Virus record (IMG/VR): IMGVR_UViG_3300010885_014582
Location: 30,014 to 94,013 of that record
DNA: 64,000 nt
Strand: one strand, 5' to 3'
From: a virus
In this document: positions 29,770-42,244 of the stretch, piece by piece
Position numbering within the stretch: position 1 is the first letter of the stretch
Layout: the number at the start of each line of letters is the position of its first letter
The notes under the pieces: generated by a model
Database searches by the model: none
Told to the model about the DNA's origin: nothing
The model's input: the letters and a program-made list of their open reading frames with translations, nothing else
Made by a program: the position numbers and the translations under genes

Positions 29770-30894
29770 TTAGGGATTAGTTAACTCTTCTATTTTAGCC
29801 TCTAATTCAGACACTTTCTGGGACAGTTCCTGTATGGATTTTACTGCCAAGGCTATTATGGCATGGTGTTTCCACATTTGTGGTTCCGTGCCATTTTCTC
29901 CCTCTTCATGGTGAATAAGGTCTGGATTAACTTCTTGTATTTCTTCGACAATAAAACCATATTGGCGTTGGGTTCTTCTACAAAATACTTCATATGGCTC
30001 ATCCATTGAAGTGTGTTCTTCTTTGAAGATAAAGGTTCGTGGTCGTAAATTGTTAATTATACTTAAACCATTATTTAAGTCTTCTATTTGCTCTTTATGG
30101 TCACGCAACGAAGACACTGCATTGAAACGGATTCCATAGGCAGGGGAACCAGTAACAGATAGCCTTACTAAAGCATTAAGAGAAGATGAAGATGGCGGGT
30201 TGTAAATAAATTCATTTAGGCTCAATGTCCCGTTGCTTGTTACATTATTGAAAGTGACATTGCTTGTAGTGTCAAGTGCTTGGTTAGCACCTGGACCTGC
30301 GGGACCTGAAGGTCCAGATGGACCTGCACCGCCGTTTGTACCATTTGTACCATTTGTACCATTTGTACCAGCCACACCACTGACACCTTGTGCACCTTGT
30401 GCACCTGATGGACCTGCTACACCTTGTGGACCTGATGGACCTGATGGACCTGATGGACCTTGAGGTCCTGATGGACCTGCTACACCTTGAGGTCCAGTAG
30501 GACCTGATGGTCCACCAGGTGTTCCACTGACTCCTGAGACACCTTGAGGTCCAGTTGCACCTGTAGGACCTGAAGGACCACTTGGACCTTGGATACCTTG
30601 AGGACCAGAAGGTCCGCTTGGACCTGAAGGACCAGAAACAGTCGATGGTGTACCGCTAACTCCCTGAGGACCACTGGGTCCTGAGGGGCCAGACGGTCCA
30701 GGAACAGTAGAACCTGGACCTGTTGGTCCTGCGGGTCCTGATGAATAGGCAAGCGCTGTCCATGCACTAGCACCATTGCCTACTTTAAATTTACCTGTGT
30801 CAGTTTCCGAACCTAGTTCACCAGCAGCAAGAGTTGGGTTTGCAGCAGTCCATTGAGCGGCTGTTCCCCTACGAAGTTGTATTTTAATAGGCAC
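29770..30894 (-). CDS. Collagen-like tail fibre with Mtd-N-like head and S74 chaperone
   Basis: [24 protein letters not shown]; long GPS/GPQ repeats; SLRDHKEQI...YGFIVEE. Confidence 0.85.
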
Positions 30895-31211
30895 TACACA
30901 CCACCTGCGTTAATCTCATCGATCCCAACATATGAAGAATCAGGGAATCCCCCATCCATATTAGACGAAGAACTAGCGGCTGGTTCTATTTGAACCCAAA
31001 ACACATTAGTCAAGTTAGCATCATCCGATGTAACCACGATCTGCTCACCAATATCTGGGACAGCCCATGGGTCTCTACGCCCAATATATGAGATAGATAC
31101 TTCGGAGTTAGCCCCCAGCAATGATGGAATCTTTACACGGATTTCACCAGTGGCGGTACTGGAATAAGTAACTAGCGCCCTGTGGACAGGGGGTGTGTTT
31201 GAACTGTGCAT
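30894..31211 (-). CDS. Short gp5/gpV-like spike OB-fold protein
   Basis: [12 protein letters not shown]...[10 protein letters not shown]...NVFW; no beta-helix follows. Confidence 0.6.
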
Positions 31212-31352
31212 TTACTCTTCTGTGTCAGGCGTTTCGCCCATTGGGGTTGCTTGCATACGCTGTAATGCTGCCTTGTAAGCGATATTTTCCAAGGTAAGGC
31301 GCTTTACTTCGTCAAGTAGTCCGTTGATGAGGTCATCAGTTTGTAATTCCAT
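31212..31352 (-). CDS. Small coiled-coil protein (46 aa)
   Basis: Hand-translated MELQTDDLINGLLDEVKRLTLENIAYKAAL... Confidence 0.55.
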   Translation of the reverse strand: MELQTDDLINGLLDEVKRLTLENIAYKAALQRMQATPMGETPDTEE

Positions 31353-32421
31353 TTAAGGTTCCTTCTTTGATTTCATAGAATCCTTTGCCCCAGAGAGACA
31401 AAAGACGGTTGAAGTATCTATCATACAGCAAAGCGTTGGCATCTAGCCCAAAGCGGTTAACTGCGTACTCTCTAATGGCTTTGCGGTCAAGGCTTGGTGC
31501 CTTTTCAGCAGCCTCAATAAATTCCTGCAATGTCCGACAACGGAAGCCACTAACTCCTTGAACTACATTCTCAGGGAAAGCACCCCAGTCTGTGGTAATT
31601 ACAGGAGTGCCACATGCCATGGCTTCAGCCACAACTAACCCAAATGGCTCGGTGTAGATGGTGGGGGCAAATGAGGCTATTGCGCCACCCATTAGTTTGG
31701 CTCGTTCTTCTGTACCCACGACTCCTACATATTCTCCGTAGTCGGGAACTGTTCCTTGTCCAGCAATGATCAACCGCTTACCAAGGTGCCTACAAACATC
31801 TACTGCCACCTGGTAGCCCTTACGGTCAATCAATCGACCCATGAAAAGGTAGTAATCATCGGGAGTCTCTCTAAAGGGGAAATCCTTGATGTCAACATGA
31901 CCTGGGATTACATCGTCAAAAAACTGACCATCCACATCGTGGGGGTTATTAGTTGCTGCTCCATAACAGACATGCATCCATGCGTATGACTCAAACACCT
32001 TGTACTTGGCAAAGGTTCCACCGTAACCAACTTCGAACTCTACGGTCATGTGGTTAGGAAAGGCATCAGCAATTACTTTGTGTGCCCTTCCTCCAATAAC
32101 GCAAATAAAGTCTTTGGGCTGGATCCTTTTGCCTATTTCCTCGATTGCAGTGTTGTTGAACTTTACCCAATGAGGCAGAGCGTAGTCAAAGGAGGCAAGG
32201 GAATAGTGTTTGCCCTCTAGGGAGTCAAGGCGCTCCTGCTCGGAAATGCACATGATGTTCTCATCACAAGGCGCATCAGTAAATTCCCCACCATAAAGAA
32301 AAACCTCATGGTTGAGAGATTTCATCATAATTGCAAATTTACGAACATTCTCAGTAAAAGCGCAAGCCGTGAAATCTAGGGTCGTATTAGCGTGGGGTAA
32401 ACCAACTACATGAAATCTCAT
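31336..32421 (-). CDS. GT-B (family 4-like) glycosyltransferase
   Basis: FMGRLIDRKG, EPFGLVVAEAMACGTPVI. Confidence 0.93.
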   Translation of the reverse strand: MRFHVVGLPHANTTLDFTACAFTENVRKFAIMMKSLNHEVFLYGGEFTDAPCDENIMCISEQERLDSLEGKHYSLASFDYALPHWVKFNNTAIEEIGKRIQPKDFICVIGGRAHKVIADAFPNHMTVEFEVGYGGTFAKYKVFESYAWMHVCYGAATNNPHDVDGQFFDDVIPGHVDIKDFPFRETPDDYYLFMGRLIDRKGYQVAVDVCRHLGKRLIIAGQGTVPDYGEYVGVVGTEERAKLMGGAIASFAPTIYTEPFGLVVAEAMACGTPVITTDWGAFPENVVQGVSGFRCRTLQEFIEAAEKAPSLDRKAIREYAVNRFGLDANALLYDRYFNRLLSLWGKGFYEIKEGTLNGITN

Positions 32422-32433
32422 GCTGGAATACTA

Positions 32434-33444
32434 TCAGGAACCTTTAAGTGTGTCTACTTCTAGTTTAAGGTCTGCTACCTGAGAAGACAGTTCTTTTACG
32501 GCTGATACAAGCAATGAAATAACATCGTTTGTTTTCCACATGATTGCTTTACGAGAGCCATCTGTGTCGGGGATATAATGAAGAAGGTCGGCTGATACTT
32601 CTTCTATTTCTTGGACTATAAAACCGTGTTCTGTGTAGTCACGGTGTAATCCTTTTTCAAACTCTGGGTCATCAGGTGCATCGTTCCATTTGAATGTGCG
32701 TGGTCGCAATTGATTAACTATTTCTAAACCATTGTCAAAATCAGCAATGTCATTTTTTAGTTCTCTGCGTGAACTGCTTACTCTCACAGCACCATTTGAT
32801 ACCCTTATTAAAGAAGTACCAGAGCCAGTAGTGGAAGAGTATGAACCAATCAAAGAAATTTCTGCGTTAGTAGCATAAATTATTGGTGTATCAATACCAC
32901 TTTGAATCTGCCATAGACCAGCATTGCGCAAAATGTTAGACCCTTCATCTGAAAGGCTTGTTGCTGTGTACGAGGTTGAACCAGCAGGACCTTGAATACC
33001 TTGTGGACCTTGAGCACCTGTTCCACCAGCAGCACCTTGTGGACCTTGTGCACCAGTGCCACCCGTGCTTCCTGCTACACCTTGAGGTCCTGATGGACCT
33101 GATGGACCTGCTACACCCTGTGCACCTTGAGGTCCACTAGGACCTGCTACACCCTGAGGTCCAGTTGCGCCCGTAGTACCTTGAGGTCCCGTTGCACCTA
33201 CAGCACCATTGGTCCCTGGCACACCACTCACACCTTGTGGTCCAGATGGTCCAGCAACACTAGAAGGGGTACCACTCACACCTTGTGGTCCTGTAGCCCC
33301 TGCTGGACCACTAGGACCTGTTGCCCCTGTGACACCTAGAGAGTTGACATTGAGCGCCCACTTACCATCTGTAAATGTCCAAGTTTTGCCGCTTACTGTG
33401 TAGTTATCACCAGGCGCAGGGGAGTTTGGGAAATCAATAGCCAT
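32434..33444 (-). CDS. Collagen-like fibre with S74 chaperone
   Basis: MAIDFPNSP N-module, G-X-Y repeats, SRRELKNDI...HGFIVQE. Confidence 0.85.
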   Translation of the reverse strand: MAIDFPNSPAPGDNYTVSGKTWTFTDGKWALNVNSLGVTGATGPSGPAGATGPQGVSGTPSSVAGPSGPQGVSGVPGTNGAVGATGPQGTTGATGPQGVAGPSGPQGAQGVAGPSGPSGPQGVAGSTGGTGAQGPQGAAGGTGAQGPQGIQGPAGSTSYTATSLSDEGSNILRNAGLWQIQSGIDTPIIYATNAEISLIGSYSSTTGSGTSLIRVSNGAVRVSSSRRELKNDIADFDNGLEIVNQLRPRTFKWNDAPDDPEFEKGLHRDYTEHGFIVQEIEEVSADLLHYIPDTDGSRKAIMWKTNDVISLLVSAVKELSSQVADLKLEVDTLKGS

Positions 33445-33478
33445 AAGTAACCAGTTTACCGTATAGGGCTATAGTCGG

Positions 33479-33763
33479 TCAGAGCCACCAAAAGTGTTTA
33501 ATGATTGAGAGACTAGCCAAGATCACCCACGCCACATTGAAAAGGATGATTGTGGGAAGGGTCTTTTCGGTCGATGACCAAATCAGGGCAATGCTTGAAG
33601 CGATGGCAAAGATATAAACCCACCACCATTGGTAACCAAGAAGCAGTCCAGGAAAGATAATGGCAATCTTGGTAGAAAAACCCCATGCTTCCACGATGTT
33701 TGGTTTAGTCCAATATCCTTTGTGGGACATTGTCTTTGTTGCTTGAATTACTTTTTTTAACAT
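33479..33763 (-). CDS. Small multi-pass membrane protein
   Basis: Three hydrophobic segments. Confidence 0.65.
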   Translation of the reverse strand: MLKKVIQATKTMSHKGYWTKPNIVEAWGFSTKIAIIFPGLLLGYQWWWVYIFAIASSIALIWSSTEKTLPTIILFNVAWVILASLSIIKHFWWL

Positions 33764-34872
33764 TAGTTATATGCTATATAAGACAATAATGCTTTTCTTG
33801 CTGCATACATTTCAGGGCGACTTAAATCTTCTGATTGCCAAATATTTGGAAATTCAACTATACTCAGTGCTTCTTTAGGGGTCGCTATCAAGTCGTTAAT
33901 TGATAAAAGTGCGCAATATTTGTATACATCTTTTTCAATAGATACTCGTTCTGTTTCCAGTATGTCTGAATCAATATTTACAGTTCTTGGATGGTTGGCA
34001 ACTAAGGAATTTAAAGAAAGATACCTAACTTTAGACTTTAACCAGTTTTCAAACAATGGACCCACGGTTGTACTTTCCTCAAAATCAAAGCGGGCGTTGC
34101 TCATTCCTTTAAGATACCTGTACAGAGGCATGTCTTCTTGAATGCCAATAAACTCATCCATAATGTCTTGACCTATTTCAAGTTTTTTAAGAAGTTCTGC
34201 ACAGTCAAGTACGATTTCCTCGGTGCTATTAAATGGTTCTTCTTTAAGAGAAGCCCACTCTATGAGCAATTTTATAGCACCTACAAATGACTTGGACATA
34301 CGGGTTACCCCAGGCCAATCTCGATAATCAGTACCTTGCCCAACCATCTTAAAATAAACAATATGAGCATCGCCAACAGAATTTATTAATGGCAAAGAAA
34401 GTTTTATTGTTTGACCATTTACAGTCTCAGGATTTACTGATGATTCTTTTACTCCATCAAGAATAGCGTATGCTTTTCCACCGTATGTTTCAGTGTCACA
34501 CCTTTGTTCATAGGCAATTATAGGGTTGTGGTTACTAGACATTAAGTTTGGCATAGATACGGAGTCTAAAATTGTATATACACCGTCTTCGGTAATGTTT
34601 GATTCGTTGATGTATTCACGAGCAAACTCGTAACACGACCATTGAATCAGTGATTCTTTACCGTTTGATACCAACACATAGTTATACTCAACTTTATAAA
34701 AGTTGAAATCTTTAAAGGCAATTATTGTTTTGTCATCTGCTGTAAATGTGTCATATTCAGTATATTCAATATCGCCATCGGGATAGCGTCTATACAACTT
34801 AAATGCGTCTAGTGATTCATAGACATAGTAACAACCATAAAGAGATACATCGATCTGTGCTGTGTTATTCAT
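33763..34872 (-). CDS. Hypothetical protein
   Basis: 369 aa ORF in the halogenase operon. Confidence 0.7.
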   Translation of the reverse strand: MNNTAQIDVSLYGCYYVYESLDAFKLYRRYPDGDIEYTEYDTFTADDKTIIAFKDFNFYKVEYNYVLVSNGKESLIQWSCYEFAREYINESNITEDGVYTILDSVSMPNLMSSNHNPIIAYEQRCDTETYGGKAYAILDGVKESSVNPETVNGQTIKLSLPLINSVGDAHIVYFKMVGQGTDYRDWPGVTRMSKSFVGAIKLLIEWASLKEEPFNSTEEIVLDCAELLKKLEIGQDIMDEFIGIQEDMPLYRYLKGMSNARFDFEESTTVGPLFENWLKSKVRYLSLNSLVANHPRTVNIDSDILETERVSIEKDVYKYCALLSINDLIATPKEALSIVEFPNIWQSEDLSRPEMYAARKALLSYIAYN

Positions 34873-34875
34873 GTA

Positions 34876-35682
34876 TTAACCTCTTTTAAAGATTTTACTA
34901 AAAATACCTTTTTTGGTATCTTCTTCTTCTAAAGCCTTGTCGACTCGTATGCGTTCACGCCTGTATGGTGCGGCTGTACCTTCGGCTGGCATGATGTGTC
35001 CAAAGCCAAAACCTTTGTTCGCTACATATTTATATGTAGATTCATCAGCCAAAATTACTTTATTAATGTTGTTCTTGCGCTCAAATGGCACCAAATGTGC
35101 CAGAGGTGTTCCATATTTAATGGAGAATTCTTTATCACCAGTTATGTTTAAAACAATATTAGCGGTGTGGTAAAAGTCGGTGTGAACAATAGCGGGCATT
35201 ATTGTGTAGTTAGGGTTTGGTTCCCATAACACTGGCAAGAATAACACCGACCACCCTGGCGCTGTCTCTATTTTCCACGGATTTACTATTTTTGGAAACC
35301 CTGCTTGACTAAATTCAGAAGACCGTATACTTGTTACAGGGCACTCACCTGTTGACTCATACGGAAAACCTTGAATTACTGAAATATCATTATTTTCAAC
35401 TTGAAAACCAAAGTTGTCTGCTCGTGTTTCCCAGTCCCCGCTAGGTCCTGGCCTAAACTTATAGTTTGTCCACGCAGGAATGGTTATTCCAGTGCTGAAG
35501 TAATCATTAATCCCAGCGCAACGGCGAAGAGAGCCTTCACCTTTATGGATACGCTTGAACCACGGGCGCTGTGTTTCTACCGAGTTTTTGTACGGAGGCA
35601 TCTCATTAAGCCTGTTATCGAGAGGGGTAATCCTGATTTCTCCAGGTTTTACTTTTTCTTGCTTATTCATTTTCATAGCCAA
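34876..35682 (-). CDS. DUF6065-like protein (commonly oxygenase-associated)
   Basis: LRRCAGINDYF..G.TIPAW, PWKIETAPGWS, IKYGTPLAHLVPFER. Confidence 0.6.
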   Translation of the reverse strand: MAMKMNKQEKVKPGEIRITPLDNRLNEMPPYKNSVETQRPWFKRIHKGEGSLRRCAGINDYFSTGITIPAWTNYKFRPGPSGDWETRADNFGFQVENNDISVIQGFPYESTGECPVTSIRSSEFSQAGFPKIVNPWKIETAPGWSVLFLPVLWEPNPNYTIMPAIVHTDFYHTANIVLNITGDKEFSIKYGTPLAHLVPFERKNNINKVILADESTYKYVANKGFGFGHIMPAEGTAAPYRRERIRVDKALEEEDTKKGIFSKIFKRG

Positions 35683-37184
35683 TCGTCGTCTACTTTACTA
35701 AGTTGTTGTAGGGCTAGAGCATGGTCAATCAATTCATGATTGTGCCGTTCTTCTCGCATTTGGGCAACAACATTTTCTGTTTCTTGTCTGATGTTTAGTC
35801 TATCAAGAACCCTCGTAGATGGCTCTACTGAGAAAACTCCTTGCCCTTGAGCAACATGCGCCATATGGGGGGTCGCAAACAACTCTGCATGAAGGTGTGG
35901 GACATCGTTTCTAACAGGTGGTCGTTCTGACCATAGATCAAGCAACTCTTGGAGTTCATGGTTTATTGGCATATCCGCCATTGCCGACCAGAATGGGGTG
36001 TCTCGTCGATCACTGTAGTAATGCAATCTAATCATTGTGAGAATATTACGCATAACCTCACTAAACGCCTTATTAAAGTGCTTTTGAGATTTTGTATACG
36101 AAGAATCGTATGACGCCATGTATGGAATCATCATTTTAACTTGTTGGATAGTTGAGCCAATACTCGTTGCTTCTAAAGGCTCGACAAATGATGATGCCAA
36201 TCCAACTGCTACACAGTTGTTTTTCCAAGGCTCATCGAGATACCCAGCGTCAAACTTAATAGACCTGTGCTTATCTATTTTGTATCCAGATATTTCTTCG
36301 GCTTCTTTAACAATCTCTTCTTCCGTGGCAAACTGGGAAGAATACACATAACCATTTCCTCGTCGAGATTGGGTAGGTATTTCCCACACCCATCCGTTCG
36401 TTGCAGCAATTGCACGGGTGTATGGACGAATCTCTCCTGATGGATCAGACTCTGTAGGGAAGGCAATAGAGGAATCACACAAAAGATACTTATTAAATGA
36501 GTTCCACTTAACATCTCCTAGGTTATTCATTAATACTCGTCTAAAACCAGAAGCATCAAACCAAAAGTCAGCGTTTACTACGCTTCCCTCTTCTGTTTTT
36601 ACAGAAGTAATATTCCCATTTTCTTCTTGATTAACTTCAGTTACTGTTCCTTCAATAAACTTAATGCTTCGTTTAAAACACAATTCAGTAAAATACTCGT
36701 TTAATTTGAAGGTATCAAAGTGGTACTGGTTAGTGTTGCGGTGAAGCCCAAGAACCCTAATTTGGTTACGAACAAGCCCTACGCTGGTTGTTTGGTTTGT
36801 AAACAACCTTTCATTCTCTAGGAAACTTGCATAGGTGGCGTGCACTCCCCACCCAAATATTTCATCAACATTTCCTACACTATGGAAGTACCTAGGGATG
36901 TTTTCTGTCCATCCCTCAAACCGAATCCCATATTTATGAGTTGCTCCAGTAGAAACAAGCATGTCCTCAAGAGGAATATCACAATGTTTCATGAACTCTG
37001 ACCAGTGCTCAGTGCTACCTTCTCCAACGCCAATAATGCCAATATCTGAAGATACAACGACAGTTATTTCTGACATTGGGAACGCCTTGCGTAAAAGTAA
37101 CGCTGAAACTAACCCTGCGGTGCCAGCACCGACTATCCCTATAGATAACTGATGAGTAAATTGTTTCTGATTCATTGAAACCAA
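35673..37184 (-). CDS. Flavin-dependent (tryptophan halogenase family) halogenase
   Basis: GAGTAG, IGVGEGS, ATHKYGI (catalytic Lys region), WVWEIP (WxWxIP), FVEPLEATS. Confidence 0.93.
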   Translation of the reverse strand: MVSMNQKQFTHQLSIGIVGAGTAGLVSALLLRKAFPMSEITVVVSSDIGIIGVGEGSTEHWSEFMKHCDIPLEDMLVSTGATHKYGIRFEGWTENIPRYFHSVGNVDEIFGWGVHATYASFLENERLFTNQTTSVGLVRNQIRVLGLHRNTNQYHFDTFKLNEYFTELCFKRSIKFIEGTVTEVNQEENGNITSVKTEEGSVVNADFWFDASGFRRVLMNNLGDVKWNSFNKYLLCDSSIAFPTESDPSGEIRPYTRAIAATNGWVWEIPTQSRRGNGYVYSSQFATEEEIVKEAEEISGYKIDKHRSIKFDAGYLDEPWKNNCVAVGLASSFVEPLEATSIGSTIQQVKMMIPYMASYDSSYTKSQKHFNKAFSEVMRNILTMIRLHYYSDRRDTPFWSAMADMPINHELQELLDLWSERPPVRNDVPHLHAELFATPHMAHVAQGQGVFSVEPSTRVLDRLNIRQETENVVAQMREERHNHELIDHALALQQLSKVDDDWL

Positions 37185-37747
37185 GTTACCATAGAATATT
37201 TGGTTCCACTCGTAACGGGGTGTGCAATGTGCATATACGGAAAGTTGCTAGGAAACAATATTACCGAACCAGCATCTAAGGACACTGTTACATCTAAGTT
37301 TGGAAACTCCAAATGACCACCCTCTTCGGCTGCACCCAAACATGCAATTGCACTAAACACCCGTCGACTGTCTGGGGAGTGATCGTAGTGGGCGTGGTAT
37401 TCAGCAAGCCCAGAATACTTTAAAACTGATATGAGTTCATGACCTGCTCCAGGAAGTTGGTACTCCTCTGCATAGTCATTTACTACTTTTATAAAAGGAT
37501 TATAAATTGCTTCCCTGAATAACTGAGACAACCCAGTGGTTTGGTAAGGTGGAAGCAGAGTAGTCAGCATGCAGGAAAGTGATGTCCTGTGTTGACCAAT
37601 TCTCCCGTTGCCGACTAGAGAAGTATCCCAAGATAGATCTTCGCCAAAGTTGTCTTCTATGTTTTTCTCTAGGGCTTTAATAAACTCTGTTGGTTCAAGC
37701 GCATCTCTATATACAGAGATACATAGACCTGGTTTTTCTACAATCAT
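37172..37747 (-). CDS. 2OG-Fe(II) oxygenase, prolyl-hydroxylase-like
   Basis: HYD...GGHLEF...FPSNFPYMHIAHPVTSGTKYS. Confidence 0.92.
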   Translation of the reverse strand: MIVEKPGLCISVYRDALEPTEFIKALEKNIEDNFGEDLSWDTSLVGNGRIGQHRTSLSCMLTTLLPPYQTTGLSQLFREAIYNPFIKVVNDYAEEYQLPGAGHELISVLKYSGLAEYHAHYDHSPDSRRVFSAIACLGAAEEGGHLEFPNLDVTVSLDAGSVILFPSNFPYMHIAHPVTSGTKYSMVTWFQ

Positions 37748-38166
37748 GATACTTCAAACTTTCCTTCTTGTATAACCCCATGGAGGGAGGAACTTACTAC
37801 GAAACTGTAGATTCCTATCTCGTTAAACCTATCACGGTACTTAACTACATGGCTTTCTTTAAGTTTTGGAGTTAATTCTATTTGGGTGCCAGTAGCACCA
37901 TCTTGGTTGACAACACACTTTAAATCTTTTGGGAACACAATAAATTCATTGGTGTAGTCAATTGGTTGGATAAACCCAACTTCTACAATTTTTTTGTAGT
38001 CAATTGCATGTTTTTCTGGTATTTGAACTACACAAATATCTGTTTCTGAGTCTTCCTCAGTACCAATTCGAACAGGTAGTTGTGTTTCTTTGGCTAGTGC
38101 CAGTGCTTCTTCTGGTATTTTTTCGTCTATGTATAAAGACGCAGGTACATGAATTAATCGTTTCAT
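37744..38166 (-). CDS. Hypothetical protein
   Basis: Coupled ORF in the cassette. Confidence 0.65.
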   Translation of the reverse strand: MKRLIHVPASLYIDEKIPEEALALAKETQLPVRIGTEEDSETDICVVQIPEKHAIDYKKIVEVGFIQPIDYTNEFIVFPKDLKCVVNQDGATGTQIELTPKLKESHVVKYRDRFNEIGIYSFVVSSSLHGVIQEGKFEVS

Positions 38167-38170
38167 GACC

Positions 38171-38413
38171 TTATGATAGCGACTGAATCTTCGCCTTTAC
38201 ACTATTGTAAGCGGTCAACAACTTGCGTAAACGCATAATTTCTCCCTCATACCCTGCGACTGTAGAGTCATCCATAGCGTCTAAATCGCTTGCTTGAAAA
38301 GCATCTGGGTCAAGATTGATTCTCAAAAGAAGATTGTAAATTTCGTGGCTTAGTGCCACCTCTGATCCTTCAAGTGATTGAAGTTTTTGAGCAGATGTAA
38401 GATTGAGTTCCAT
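38171..38413 (-). CDS. Hypothetical protein (possible fibre chaperone)
   Basis: 80 aa, directly after the His-rich fibre gene. Confidence 0.6.
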   Translation of the reverse strand: MELNLTSAQKLQSLEGSEVALSHEIYNLLLRINLDPDAFQASDLDAMDDSTVAGYEGEIMRLRKLLTAYNSVKAKIQSLS

Positions 38414-38421
38414 GGTCTTTC

Positions 38422-40164
38422 CTATGTGTTGAGTAGAACATACGCTGTTCCGCTTCCAGCAGGGTTACCCCCAGCAGCCAAGACGCTTCCGCCTCCTGTG
38501 TTGTATGTGATTGTACCAGAAACGGAATCTGTTACTACAAGGATAGCACCTCCGCCTCCAGGACCTCCATGAGTTCCATTTGGAGCCTGTAAAGCAGGAG
38601 CACCTCTACCAAAGGTAGTTCCGTTGTTTACACCACCAGCACCACCTGTCCAGTGACCATTAGGTTGTGCCGTATGGGTGTTGGGGTTTGCATGGTGAGA
38701 ATGTCGTGCAGCGGTAAAATAACCATTTGAATAAGTGTGTGGTCCGTGGTGGTGACCACCACTAACTTGCATTCCTCCACCTTGGTTAGTTCCATTTCCT
38801 AGGTCGCTACCGTTGGCGTGAGTGTGGGTATGGGGCGGGATGGCTTGACCTGCGTGGATATGACCGTCATGTCCACCAGCATGTTGATGATAGACCCTTC
38901 CTTCAAAATGCCCATAAGTAGCAGGATGAGAGTGTTGGGCAGCATGGTTTGTTTTAGCATTGGTATGGATGACACTGGGCCAGTTGTGGATGTGGGTTAA
39001 CGCACCATGCCCATCATTGGAGTGTGGGTGGTGTGCTCCACCAGTGTGGTGGTAGTGACCAGAGTTATGGTTATGTCCAGGGTAATGCTGTCCGCCGTAG
39101 TGAGAAGCAGGGTTATGAGAAGCGGGGTTATGGTGCGTGTGGTGGTATTTATCGCCACCATCATGTGCTCCAGGATAATGCTGTCCACCATAGTGGGATG
39201 CAGCGTTATGGGATGCACAACAATGTGGGTGTGGGTTAACAATGTGCAGGTGATGGTCAGCAAATCTTGCATAACCATGGTGATGGCTAGGGTTGTGTGT
39301 AGGTGCTACATGGTTTGGAGTAGGAGCCACATGGTAAGCAAGATCTGGTGCTTTAGCGCCATCGGCACCTTGAGTACCAGCATTTCCAGTTGTTCCATTA
39401 GTGGCTGTTCCACCAGTGTTACCTATAGAAATAAACTTTCCTGAGCCAACAATTACCTTTGCGACAACACAAACAACACCACCGCCAAGTCCACCAGCAC
39501 CGCCAGTTCCAGGGGTTCCTGCGGTCCATCCCGTCACATTACCATCTGATGCTGTTGCACCTTTTCCACCAGGAACACTAACTGTGTCTTTGTAAGGGTT
39601 TGCAACGCTGTTTACTGAACCAGTTGCGGAACCTGCTGTTCCAACAGCACCCGCTTTTCCTGACCATGTATCAGAGTTAGTTAATGGGGTTACTGCTGCT
39701 CCATTGGCTCCAGCACCACCAAAACCACCACCTCGTATTGGTGTTACACCAGTAGTGGGGTCTGTAAATACCCCGCCAGACATTGCGTTGATACTTTTAA
39801 ATAAAAAACTTGGAAGAAGTGTGGACGAGTCAGTTCCACCTGCTCCACCAGCACGGTATGTGATTGCGCCAGTTGTATGACCACCGACTGTTCCGTCGGC
39901 AACGGTTGACGCAGCAGGTCCTAATACACCCGCTGGTGCAGTTCCTATGCCAATATAACCATTTAAAGTTAATGTGTTCTTTACAAAGACTCGAAAACCA
40001 TTGGTGTTGAGGACAACACCCGCATCTACGGTTAAGTTTCTGTAGTAAGTATCAGAGGTAATGTTTGTGTTAGTAGTAATGACCACATCGCCGTCAACAC
40101 CTGATCCGTAAACAGCATCATTCGCAATGCGAGCAACGCTCGTTTCAATTCTTGAAATAGCCAT
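38422..40164 (-). CDS. Gly-rich virion fibre with a large His-rich insertion
   Basis: YGSGVDGD...NLT...NGFRVFVK scaffold shared with the 40167..40931 gene; ~230 aa His-rich block. Confidence 0.8.
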   Translation of the reverse strand: MAISRIETSVARIANDAVYGSGVDGDVVITTNTNITSDTYYRNLTVDAGVVLNTNGFRVFVKNTLTLNGYIGIGTAPAGVLGPAASTVADGTVGGHTTGAITYRAGGAGGTDSSTLLPSFLFKSINAMSGGVFTDPTTGVTPIRGGGFGGAGANGAAVTPLTNSDTWSGKAGAVGTAGSATGSVNSVANPYKDTVSVPGGKGATASDGNVTGWTAGTPGTGGAGGLGGGVVCVVAKVIVGSGKFISIGNTGGTATNGTTGNAGTQGADGAKAPDLAYHVAPTPNHVAPTHNPSHHHGYARFADHHLHIVNPHPHCCASHNAASHYGGQHYPGAHDGGDKYHHTHHNPASHNPASHYGGQHYPGHNHNSGHYHHTGGAHHPHSNDGHGALTHIHNWPSVIHTNAKTNHAAQHSHPATYGHFEGRVYHQHAGGHDGHIHAGQAIPPHTHTHANGSDLGNGTNQGGGMQVSGGHHHGPHTYSNGYFTAARHSHHANPNTHTAQPNGHWTGGAGGVNNGTTFGRGAPALQAPNGTHGGPGGGGAILVVTDSVSGTITYNTGGGSVLAAGGNPAGSGTAYVLLNT

Positions 40165-40166
40165 AT

Positions 40167-40931
40167 TTAAACCTGCTGAATATAGTTTACAGTTCCAGCA
40201 TTGGCACCAGTTACATCTGTTGCGACAGTAGCAGGAAGTGCGCTTGCGGAAGAAACTATAATTATGACTCCGCCACCACCAGGGGATACGGCTGGTGCTT
40301 TAATGTAGCCAGTTCCAGAAGCGGGACCGCTGATGTAACGAGCGGCAAGGATAACAATTCCGCCACCTTCCTTACTAGCCCCACCTGCGCCTCCACGAAG
40401 CCATGTAGGGCCTCCTGATGCTGTTATAGAGTATCCTGTGATGGCTTGCAGTGGTTGTTTAAAGTAGTTAGCGCCACCTAATGCAGAAGTAGGTGCAGTG
40501 GCTGTATAAGTTGCGGCTGCGTTCCCACCGAGACTGTGTGTGACTGATGTAGCAACTGCTCCGCCCTGCATGATTGAACCTGAAGTTGAATAACCAGCCT
40601 GAAAACCAACAATAGAACTTGTACCAAAGCGCAAAGTTCCTTTAACAAATATACGATAACCGTTAGGTGAAAGACGAACGCTATTACCTAATGTTAAATC
40701 ATTGAAGTACATATCTTGTGTCATGGCATAAGTACTTGAAAATGGCACCATTCCTAGAACAGTCGTGGTTCCGTCCAGTACGGCATCTCCGTCAGCGCCT
40801 GTTCCGTAAACAGAGTCAACGCCTTCGTTGTAGTAGGCGTTCCATACAGAACCATCCCATTGCCAACTTTTGGAACCAACAGTGTAAATCTGGTTTGTGT
40901 ATGGAGAAGCAGGAAAAGTAATCGCTGGCAT
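40167..40931 (-). CDS. Gly-rich virion protein (paralog lacking the His block)
   Basis: FPASP N-module; YGTGADGD...NGYRIFVK...GGGGVIII. Confidence 0.75.
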   Translation of the reverse strand: MPAITFPASPYTNQIYTVGSKSWQWDGSVWNAYYNEGVDSVYGTGADGDAVLDGTTTVLGMVPFSSTYAMTQDMYFNDLTLGNSVRLSPNGYRIFVKGTLRFGTSSIVGFQAGYSTSGSIMQGGAVATSVTHSLGGNAAATYTATAPTSALGGANYFKQPLQAITGYSITASGGPTWLRGGAGGASKEGGGIVILAARYISGPASGTGYIKAPAVSPGGGGVIIIVSSASALPATVATDVTGANAGTVNYIQQV

Positions 40932-42244
40932 TAGGCAGGACCAATATCTTCTACTATAATTTGAATTGGCTGTGAAGCACTTGCTTCTGCTTTAGATGTA
41001 GCATTTTCACAGGCTCCACGAAGTTTATAAGTAACAGAACCACTAATACCACTGGCTATAAAAAATGAAGATGCATTCCAATATCCAGATGCATTGGCGG
41101 TAACATCCATTTGTTGTTGAGTTGTATTAGCAGAGTTTGTAAGAGAAATGCTTGTATATCCAGCAGTAGTATATTTGAATCCAGTTGACGCCCATGAAAT
41201 TTTATAAAGTCTGCCACTTATAGCAGTCCATGTTGCACTACATCCAGTAATGTCTATTGGAGATGTTGAACTAAAAGTGGTGCCACCTGATGTTCTATTT
41301 GTAAAAGCAACCTGTCCCCAAGGCAAGTTCCAGTTTGGATACCATGCCGTACCGTTCCAAAACAGCATCTTGTCTGTATCTGTTTCGTAAATTGTCTGAC
41401 CTTCCCACGGTGCAGATGGACGAGTAGATGAAGTACACTGATACGGCGACATCGTGCCACCACCTAATTCAACCCATGCTGAGTTGTAATAGATGTACGA
41501 AGCACCACTATTGGTGTCAAACCAAACTTGACCAGCAACTGGGGATACTGGAGCGGTTGCAGAACTTGTAATCGCAGTAGGTCCTGTTACGCCAGTCGCC
41601 CCAGTTACACCAGTTGGTCCTGTTGGACCTGTCGGTCCAGTAGCGCCAATAACACCTGAAACTCCGCTAACACCTGAAACTCCACTGACACCCTGAACTC
41701 CAGTAGGACCAGTAGGTCCTGTGACTCCAGTTGCGCCAATTACACCACTAACACCACTAACACCAGATACTCCTGAAACACCAGAAACACCTTGAACCCC
41801 AGTAGGACCAGTAGGACCAATAAGGATTACACCAGCAGGCCAAGTACCTGCTGCTTTTGGACCATAGATAGTGTTTGTAACAGTATTGACATAGAAGTCA
41901 CCGTTAACACCTTGGGTTGTCGGCGCAACAGTTCCGTAAAGGATTGTGTTTCCTGGAACACCAGTTACACCAGATACGCCTGAAACTCCACTGACACCTG
42001 AAACACCTGAAACACCAGATACACCCTGTATTCCAGTGGGTCCTGTAGGTCCAACAGGACCAGTCGGGCCAGTAGGTCCAGCAGGACCAGTACTGTAAGC
42101 AAGGGAAGTCCAAGCAGTGGAGCCAGTACCAACTTTAAACTTTCCTGTATCGGTTTCTGCGCCAAGTTCTCCTACAGCAAGAGTAGGGTTTGAAGCCGTC
42201 CACTCTGCGGCAGTGCCTCGTCTAATTTGAATTTGAATAGCCAC
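40931..42244 (-). CDS. Collagen-like fibre with Mtd-N-like head
   Basis: [11 protein letters not shown]; GVS/GPT repeats; C-terminal ...VEDIGPA receptor-binding-like domain. Confidence 0.85.

Follow-up and report, generated by a model that had tools for sequence, protein, structure and literature searches.

Positions 30,014 to 94,013 of the virus record IMGVR_UViG_3300010885_014582, i.e. the 64 kb at the right end of a single contig of 94,013 bp with a CheckV completeness of 100%, were analysed as one stretch of 64,000 nt, referred to here as the window. On its minus strand, this stretch carries an optional module of 7.5 kb (window 33479–40931) comprising the genes for two Gly-rich, fibre-like proteins (para254 and a His-rich protein), two small proteins (s80 and s140), a prolyl 4-hydroxylase (P4H)-like 2-oxoglutarate (2OG)-Fe(II) oxygenase, a flavin-dependent halogenase, a protein predicted to adopt a dUTPase fold (p7084), and the small membrane protein mem94, with the more variable unk369 also lying inside the block here. 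Based on gene context, we propose, at a probability of roughly 40%, that the oxygenase and the halogenase modify the adjacent Gly/His-rich fibre-like protein.

Co-variation of enzymes and fibre-like genes

A search started from the halogenase recovered 36 IMG/VR loci, 33 of which keep oxygenase, halogenase and p7084, and most show the para254/His-rich pair within 5 kb. With the para254 profile as the starting point, 80 loci were kept; every one that extends at least ~5 kb past para254 contains a His-rich, Gly-rich open reading frame (ORF), followed by halogenase and p7084. Indeed, no para254-positive, halogenase-negative locus was found among those with at least ~5 kb of flank, the fibre pair never standing alone. 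In a third set, started from the terminase and consisting of 42 loci whose upstream sequence reaches 5 kb or more (large terminase subunit (TerL) identity of 77–97%), the halogenase was present in three loci, and these three also have the fibre pair. Whole-record searches of ten terminase relatives showed nine to lack both halogenase and para254, four of the nine being at least 99% complete; the tenth, a 98-kb record with terminal repeats (G004), packs p7084, halogenase, oxygenase, mem94 and the two para254-like genes into 9 kb. A contig with a 97% identical TerL has no halogenase in the ~22 kb upstream, and the lack of the gene in so close a relative argues that the module is mobile. An earlier sequence-only reading of this stretch had suggested checking whether an enzyme cassette co-varies with the His-rich fibre. 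The outcome was positive: halogenase, oxygenase and p7084 are present or absent together with the para254/His-rich pair, and this joint gain and loss indicates the block to be optional and mobile.

Gene order within these loci is variable. At least 25 arrangements were seen, with the halogenase followed by p7084 as their sole constant; the oxygenase gene lies either before the halogenase or after p7084, unk369 shifts its position, and in three loci (L028, L030 and L092) the whole enzyme block is located upstream of the fibre pair. Halogenase divergence was correlated with that of p7084 (Spearman 0.76) and of the oxygenase (0.72), with no tracking by para254 (0.19). Since enzymes and fibre genes have different histories and yet stay linked, selection for their co-occurrence fits better than mere shared descent.

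Nearly all genes from ~52 kb down to the start of the window lie on the minus strand, and the halogenase region lies in a run of fibre genes just upstream of the terminase in transcription order. The genes named in the sequence-only reading were all found where it had placed them, on the minus strand, co-directional and tightly packed; from 40931 down to 33479, neighbouring genes overlap by up to 13 nt or are separated by up to 8 nt (ORF coordinates). The low G+C content of the enzyme genes (0.40 for window 34001–38000, versus 0.44–0.48 on either side) fits a separately derived module. A promoter scan returned promoter-like sites at shuffle expectation, and terminator-like sites were modestly above shuffles (25 versus 15.8, standard deviation 3.4); as there was no convincing site of either kind at any boundary, sub-operon boundaries cannot be drawn. 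No near-identical DNA was present in the phage collection searched. Two short contigs in a lake metatranscriptome are identical to parts of the block, and contigs in a marine metatranscriptome are ~92–94% alike over p7084 and halogenase. With DNA carry-over being possible, these RNA-library contigs were not counted as evidence for expression.

The stretch is contained in freshwater and lake metagenomes, and the TerL of this phage is 45% identical to BRock-type Streptomyces phage TerL; it is an uncultured freshwater phage, and its host is probably an actinobacterium. A phage module with the same synteny also occurs in contigs filed under an Actinomycetota metagenome-assembled genome (MAG) and a Gammaproteobacteria MAG (L041, RHAS01000028.1; L042 and L043, PBNR01000003.1 and PBNR01000075.1). 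These look like phage contigs binned into MAGs and thus provide weak host evidence.

The fibre-like pair and the enzymes beside it

The candidate substrate is a His-rich, Gly-rich protein of 580 aa (38422..40164, minus strand) that contains 57 His (9.8%) and 110 Gly residues (19%). Its scaffold is paralogous to para254, the 254-aa Gly-rich protein encoded next to it (40167..40931, minus strand), in that para254-like sequence is found at both ends of the His-rich protein, with a His-rich insertion of ~230 aa between. In para254, an N-terminal fibre motif is followed by a β-helix. The AlphaFold2 model of the protein (predicted local distance difference test (pLDDT) of 73.8) is a β-solenoid, its best PDB matches are weak (adhesin and bactofilin β-helices, Z 6.4), and its viral matches are collagen or fibre proteins. 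Homologs of the His-rich protein beside other halogenase blocks have 4–11% His and keep runs such as PPHTHTH; among 20 close homologs, conservation reaches 90% or more at Trp167 and at numerous His and Pro positions. A short N-terminal motif (~30–50 residues) is common to the fibre-type genes at 40167–40931, 32434–33444, 40931–42244 and 29770–30894, and is likewise matched at the start of numerous tail-fibre proteins of cyanophages (phrog_697, phrog_19200; BFVD); it is probably a common attachment module.

The halogenase (35673..37184, minus strand) matches PF04820 (Trp_halogenase) over residues 15–453 (E = 3e-102; 343 bits, cut-off 21). An ATG located four codons further downstream and overlapping the stop codon of the oxygenase gene is its likelier start. 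The GAGTAG flavin site, Lys84, GWVWEIP and EPLE (E335/E338) align to their equivalents in solved halogenases, GWVWEIP being the WxWxIP motif that the sequence-only reading had described as intact, and GxGxxG, Lys84, WxWxIP and E335/E338 are invariant across 31 distinct homologs. Full-length structure alignments were obtained solely with halogenase structures that are uncharacterised or labelled 'putative'; for RebH, Thal and PyrH, the alignment is confined to the core (~residues 133–424). The same reading had found neither a flavin reductase nor a small-molecule biosynthetic scaffold in the window. The former absence (PF01613) extends to the whole 94-kb record and, in line with the latter, no carrier-protein or biosynthetic-scaffold families turned up among the ~29 late-region proteins scanned (window 23126–48967). 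Our literature search returned nothing on an actinophage halogenase or on a halogenase with a glycine-rich domain.

The 191-aa oxygenase (37172..37747, minus strand) matches PF13640 (45.5 bits, cut-off 27; E = 1.5e-11), a family that includes hydroxylases other than P4Hs. Its nearest solved structures are the P4Hs of Bacillus anthracis and Chlamydomonas (a weak match, E = 2.5e-4), and in the weak match to the B. anthracis enzyme, H120-x-D122, H173 and K183 align to the iron and 2OG ligands. H120, D122, H173 and K183 are invariant in 23 distinct oxygenase homologs. The invariant catalytic residues in the homologs of both proteins predict halogenase and oxygenase to be working enzymes under selection. 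Several genes labelled 'DNA endonuclease V' or 'ferrochelatase' lie beside halogenases, among 2OG oxygenase genes, in the cyanophage records L204, L205, L206 and L208; phrog_2297 and phrog_3531, which bear those names, match the window oxygenase, and the labels may denote misannotated 2OG oxygenases.

Two small genes are found between the oxygenase and the His-rich protein. The end of s140 (140 aa; 37744..38166, minus strand) overlaps the start of the oxygenase gene by 4 nt, and s80 (38171..38413, minus strand) encodes a small helical protein of 80 aa that travels with the enzyme genes. It is conserved over its whole length, with helical ends, and still accompanies the enzyme genes in L028 and L030, where the gene order is rearranged. 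s140 is present in most halogenase loci, and hidden Markov models recovered both s140 and s80 in loci where BLAST had failed. s140 has no match in Pfam, PHROG or the ESM Atlas, which leaves no basis for naming it a flavin reductase or a peptide-recognition element.

The gene that constantly follows the halogenase encodes p7084 (268 aa; 34876..35682, minus strand; phrog_7084, E = 1e-22), previously called DUF6065-like. The window protein itself matches neither the Pfam dUTPase models nor Pfam DUF6065 (PF19541; E ≤ 10), and what stands of the label is a remote relation via relatives, which reach DUF6065 below its curated cut-off of 26.6 bits alone (E = 2.7e-4 to 8e-3, 16–21 bits). Such sub-threshold matches were seen for one cyanophage relative and four of ten distant relatives. 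Among 19 homologs, five match dUTPase PF00692 (best E = 1e-6) and one matches DUF6065 at 0.21; the literature search yielded nothing on DUF6065. The AlphaFold2 model (pLDDT 80.6) indicated p7084 to share the fold of the dUTPase/dCTP deaminase superfamily, to which the top 22 VIA-align PDB matches (Z up to 9.8) and likewise the top Foldseek matches belong, with a root-mean-square deviation of 3.3 Å over 118 residues and dUTPases scoring Z 8–9.8 over ~110–135 residues. Conserved stretches resemble dUTPase motifs (RxCAGxxD, TAPGWS, VxTD(F/Y)YH, GTP...P and GFG), with a spacing that differs from trimeric dUTPases. Judged from its model, p7084 is a dUTPase-fold protein of an undescribed family. This family counts 2,852 representatives at E ≤ 0.001, and a profile scan of cellular genome contigs found three loci alone, all with the same phage synteny. 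A suspected correspondence of p7084 to SapC was dropped: a profile of SapC, from proteobacterial TonB-receptor/halogenase/hydroxylase loci, had no match in the genome, and the 'S-layer protein' beside the S-PM2 halogenase is an unrelated SLH-domain protein.

Neighbouring genes and counterparts in other phages

At the far end of the module, mem94 (33479..33763, minus strand) encodes a hydrophobic protein of 94 aa with nine Trp residues and three putative transmembrane segments. It co-varies with the block and, at 59–98% identity across loci, is conserved more strongly than any other gene of the region. Among five near-complete relatives, mem94 is present in the cassette-bearing record and in none of the four cassette-less ones, and it trails the enzyme block even in the para254-less loci L027 and L031. 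Its ESM features are similar to those of viral DUF6552 and CBU_0592-like clusters; a function as a channel for halide or metal is no more than a guess. The adjoining unk369 (369 aa; 33763..34872, minus strand), which lies inside the block here, has no family match in Pfam or PHROG, and weak relatives (23–29% identity) occur in cassette-less loci.

Beyond mem94 follow a collagen-like tail fibre of 336 aa with a C-terminal S74 intramolecular chaperone (32434..33444, minus strand; PF01391, E = 4e-15; PF13884 (Peptidase_S74), E = 3e-11; tail-fibre PHROGs) and a glycosyltransferase family 4 (GT4) enzyme of 361 aa (31336..32421, minus strand; PF00534, E = 1e-16, 61.4 bits, cut-off 26.4; PF13692; phrog_3408, E = 6e-78). 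The 105-aa gene after GT4 (window 30894–31211) has a faint match to the Phage_base_V oligonucleotide/oligosaccharide-binding (OB) domain (E = 0.039). In the sequence-only reading, collagen fibre and GT4 had been members of a cassette spanning 31336–40164. Both genes are found in relatives that have neither the halogenase nor an adjacent 2OG gene (L134, L179, L198 and others lack the halogenase) and are thereby placed outside the co-varying unit, and both are missing from most cassette-bearing loci. The stretch actually gained and lost is window 33479–40931.

Halogenase loci without para254 (L026, L027/L031 and L035/L036) encode Gly_rich_2 (PF21722) proteins one to three genes upstream and carry other oxygenases, of PF05118 or divergent 2OG types; these Gly_rich_2 proteins and oxygenases are non-orthologous replacements. 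Within the genome analysed here, Gly_rich_2 had no match at E ≤ 10, para254 and the His-rich protein included. As para254 is not detectably homologous to Gly_rich_2, their likeness is one of composition and gene position. One such locus, L035 (2116–18141; IMGVR_UViG_3300046003_004947), combines four halogenase and three Gly_rich_2 paralogs with a p7084 relative; it also harbours at least three PF13640 oxygenases and an S74 fibre, with several small 2OG-like genes on the opposite strand and GroEL encoded nearby.

Nine cultured halogenase phages were inspected. In the marine cyanomyoviruses Syn9, Sf-FR1, S-SZBM1 and P-RSM6, Gly_rich_2 genes (~250–290 aa) annotated as 'tail fiber' or 'tail fiber assembly' precede a small gene, one or two halogenases and then 2OG oxygenases. 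In Syn9 and Sf-FR1, the halogenase is directly succeeded by a relative of p7084 (profile E = 1e-21 and 1e-10), and tblastn located such a relative after the halogenase also in Syn10, Sf-FP1 and Sf-CH3, and near the halogenase in S-RIM44. The family members Syn9 gp43 (L204:5986–6774) and Syn10 HQ634191.1 113407–113997 are both annotated as hypothetical; one cyanophage relative is annotated as a triphosphate nucleotidohydrolase. In S-SRM01, the halogenase is flanked by a tail-fibre gene and an 'adhesin tip' gene. Proximity to fibre genes is not a general rule, as in S-H38 the fibre gene is 6.5 kb from the halogenase. Syn9 gp39 (L204:1081–2259), a 392-aa 'tail fiber assembly' protein, consists of two Gly_rich_2-like halves with an odd hydrophobic joint, which points to a tandem duplicate that is fused or frameshifted in this record.

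Favoured reading, alternatives and known systems

If oxygenase and halogenase do modify the Gly/His-rich protein, they would act late in infection, before or during its assembly, the former hydroxylating and the latter halogenating exposed residues, with Pro, His, Tyr and the conserved Trp167 as candidate targets. Reduced flavin would come from the host, p7084 would be the obligatory partner of the halogenase, with substrate recruitment or cofactor handling as its possible tasks, and the His-rich protein would serve as a virion fibre whose stability, metal binding or receptor contact would be tuned by the modification. More tentatively, we suggest a possible extension to phage halogenases at large, including the VirX1 type: their native substrates may be the phages' own Gly-rich tail-fibre tip proteins and, with 2OG hydroxylases and the dUTPase-fold partner, they may build a halogenated, hydroxylated fibre, which would be metal-loaded and His-rich in the present phage.

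The sequence-only reading had likewise placed the enzymes in virion decoration, which it compared to the making of ribosomally synthesized and post-translationally modified peptides (RiPPs). Its interpretation stands in part: co-variation and the missing flavin reductase and scaffold speak for it, whereas membership of collagen fibre and GT4 and the likeness to RiPPs do not survive. The term 'RiPP-like' does not suit a locus in which no precursor peptide turned up. Family scans and the alignment of s80, which is conserved along its length, revealed neither a short precursor with a variable core nor a recognition element near the halogenase; no RiPP-related family was matched among the genes scanned (Pfam), and the candidate substrate is a protein of 580 aa.

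Several points weigh against the proposal that the enzymes modify the fibre-like protein. Everything rests on gene context, with no modification observed, and the loci are related by descent, so that their counts overstate independence. The putative virion status of the His-rich protein is based on a match to a PHROG of unknown function and a weak β-helix match, and profile comparison did not detect homology between para254 and Gly_rich_2 (hhalign probability <1%). Halogenases are encoded far from fibres in P-SSM2, S-PM2 (region after nrdAB) and HTVC008M (between terminase genes), and fibre regions are recombination hot spots in which accessory genes collect. Known substrates of flavin-dependent halogenases are small molecules, carrier-bound intermediates and peptides; we know of no such enzyme that acts on a folded structural protein, and to our knowledge halogenation of a virion protein is without precedent. 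Finally, a nucleotide-like ligand would be the more natural expectation for the modelled dUTPase fold of p7084.

The most serious alternative, which we consider possible though doubtful, is that the three enzyme-block proteins (halogenase, oxygenase and p7084) produce or convert a free metabolite during infection (such as a halogenated or hydroxylated amino acid, indole or nucleotide-like compound), the fibre pair being co-transferred and the location by the fibres arising since the region accepts accessory genes. Viral and related 'open-site' halogenases such as VirX1 act on free aromatic compounds in vitro, and PDB 6qgm, VirX1 of cyanophage Syn10, is among the structure matches of the window halogenase. 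A nucleotide-hydrolase fold with remnants of dUTPase-like motifs in p7084 would suit a small-molecule pathway, as would the three halogenases remote from fibres and S-RIM4, in which a p7084 relative has no neighbouring halogenase. Moreover, a jumbo-cyanophage cluster of halogenase, 2OG oxygenase and cupin was predicted to yield a halogenated secondary metabolite or capsule decoration (Iyer et al. 2021, PMC7824862). However, no scaffold, carrier, tailoring-transferase or export genes were found in the block (Pfam, PHROG), and window 31336–40931 lacks three further families of the cyanophage cluster (carbamoyltransferase, HemK-like methylase and HAD phosphatase). Production of a metabolite also leaves unexplained that the fibre pair never occurs without the enzymes despite their separate histories, and that unrelated Gly-rich proteins occupy the same place in other lineages.

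It is unlikely that the enzymes instead target another macromolecule, be it the host envelope or host proteins, for takeover or superinfection exclusion, or other virion proteins, with the fibre pair as the matching receptor-binding part of a host-range module. The mobility of the module and its patchiness among close relatives are like those of host-range modules, and a small membrane protein, mem94, co-varies. Yet, the enzyme sequences revealed neither signal peptides nor domains for envelope targeting, the cofactor needs of the enzymes (FADH2, 2OG, Fe and O2) place them in the cytoplasm, and no specific target candidate emerged.

We regard as improbable the wider scheme of the sequence-only reading, in which the P4H-like enzyme hydroxylates Pro in the collagen fibre and GT4 O-glycosylates its Ser and Thr residues. 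Hydroxylation or glycosylation is known for collagen-like fibres of giant viruses and Bacillus; here, collagen fibre and GT4 adjoin, and Ser or Thr fills 17 of the 39 Y positions of the G-X-Y triplets. Pro, however, occupies X in 15 and Y in two cases, as that reading had itself cautioned, which makes the collagen an unlikely substrate of a P4H-like enzyme, and the occurrence of both neighbours without halogenase or adjacent oxygenase gene, as well as the absence of GT4 from most cassette-bearing loci, further argue against it. Glycosylation of virions by actinophage-encoded glycosyltransferases has been reported (Freeman et al. 2023, cited in PMC12801897) and counts in favour of the GT4 portion of the scheme. 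By analogy, GT4 could glycosylate virion proteins as in mycobacteriophages, apart from the module.

Alteration of a nucleotide for phage DNA by dUTPase-fold protein, oxygenase and halogenase, though suggested by the fold of p7084 and the nucleotidohydrolase annotation of its cyanophage relative, is very improbable, as the block lies among fibre genes upstream of the terminase, in the same co-directional run and not with replication genes, the oxygenase is of the P4H rather than the TET/JBP type, and we know of no halogenated DNA base in phages.

The natural substrates of viral halogenases and of many 2OG oxygenases of aquatic phages have been an open question since the first cyanophage genomes. 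To this question, the present analysis adds a defined mobile module, a previously unnoticed constant partner with a predicted dUTPase fold and a specific candidate substrate. If modification of the fibre-like protein holds true, a virion protein would for the first time be known to be halogenated, and a flavin-dependent halogenase to act on a structural protein; phage biology would gain a new protein modification, and enzymology a protein-directed halogenase. Should it fail, the constant pair of halogenase and p7084 still narrows the hunt for the true substrate.

The closest known systems are the cyanophage halogenases (VirX1 of Syn10; 'prnA' of P-SSM2, Syn9 and S-PM2), which belong to the same Pfam family, share the GxGxxG/Lys/WxWxIP/Glu set and are likewise phage-borne, in a lytic phage and, as far as the present record goes, with no cognate flavin reductase. 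In Syn9, Syn10 and Sf-FR1, a p7084 relative comes next and 2OG oxygenases lie beside, as here. The window halogenase is 25–38% identical to these enzymes and, unlike them, belongs to a phage of a freshwater host, probably an actinobacterium, and is tied to a His-rich fibre-like protein. The literature treats the cyanophage genes as transient, antibiotic-related, metabolic or repair-related, not as fibre-directed (PMC1079782, PMC2984593, PMC3037559). The cluster of Iyer et al. shares with our module the co-location of a halogenase with 2OG-type hydroxylases in a phage. Here, in contrast, the third constant member is a predicted dUTPase-fold protein rather than a cupin, one that is about twice as long as trimeric dUTPases, with insertions and a C-terminal helix, and the block co-varies with fibre-like genes.

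With virion-decoration systems, the proposal has in common a viral enzyme that modifies, or here would modify, the virus's own surface proteins. The oxygenase is nearest to a collagen prolyl hydroxylase of B. anthracis, whereas its likely target here would be a Gly/His-rich β-helix protein, not collagen. MibH and SrpI, the peptide-directed Trp halogenases of RiPP pathways, accept a ribosomal product and not the free amino acid; their substrates are short, leader-bearing peptides encoded in RiPP clusters, while the present candidate is a 580-aa structural protein. The HxH-type runs in that protein (the conserved PPHTHTH) recall the T4 gp37 needle, which binds iron via HxH, by analogy and not by homology. 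Similarly, the jaw protein Nvjp-1 of Nereis is His/Gly-rich, halogenated, cross-linked and Zn-binding (PMC13120676). It, too, is an analogy without homology, in which a Gly- and His-rich structural protein meets halogen chemistry, as its counterpart here may do. Jaw and needle serve as leads, not as evidence, to what a modified fibre might gain, such as hardness, metal loading or protease resistance.

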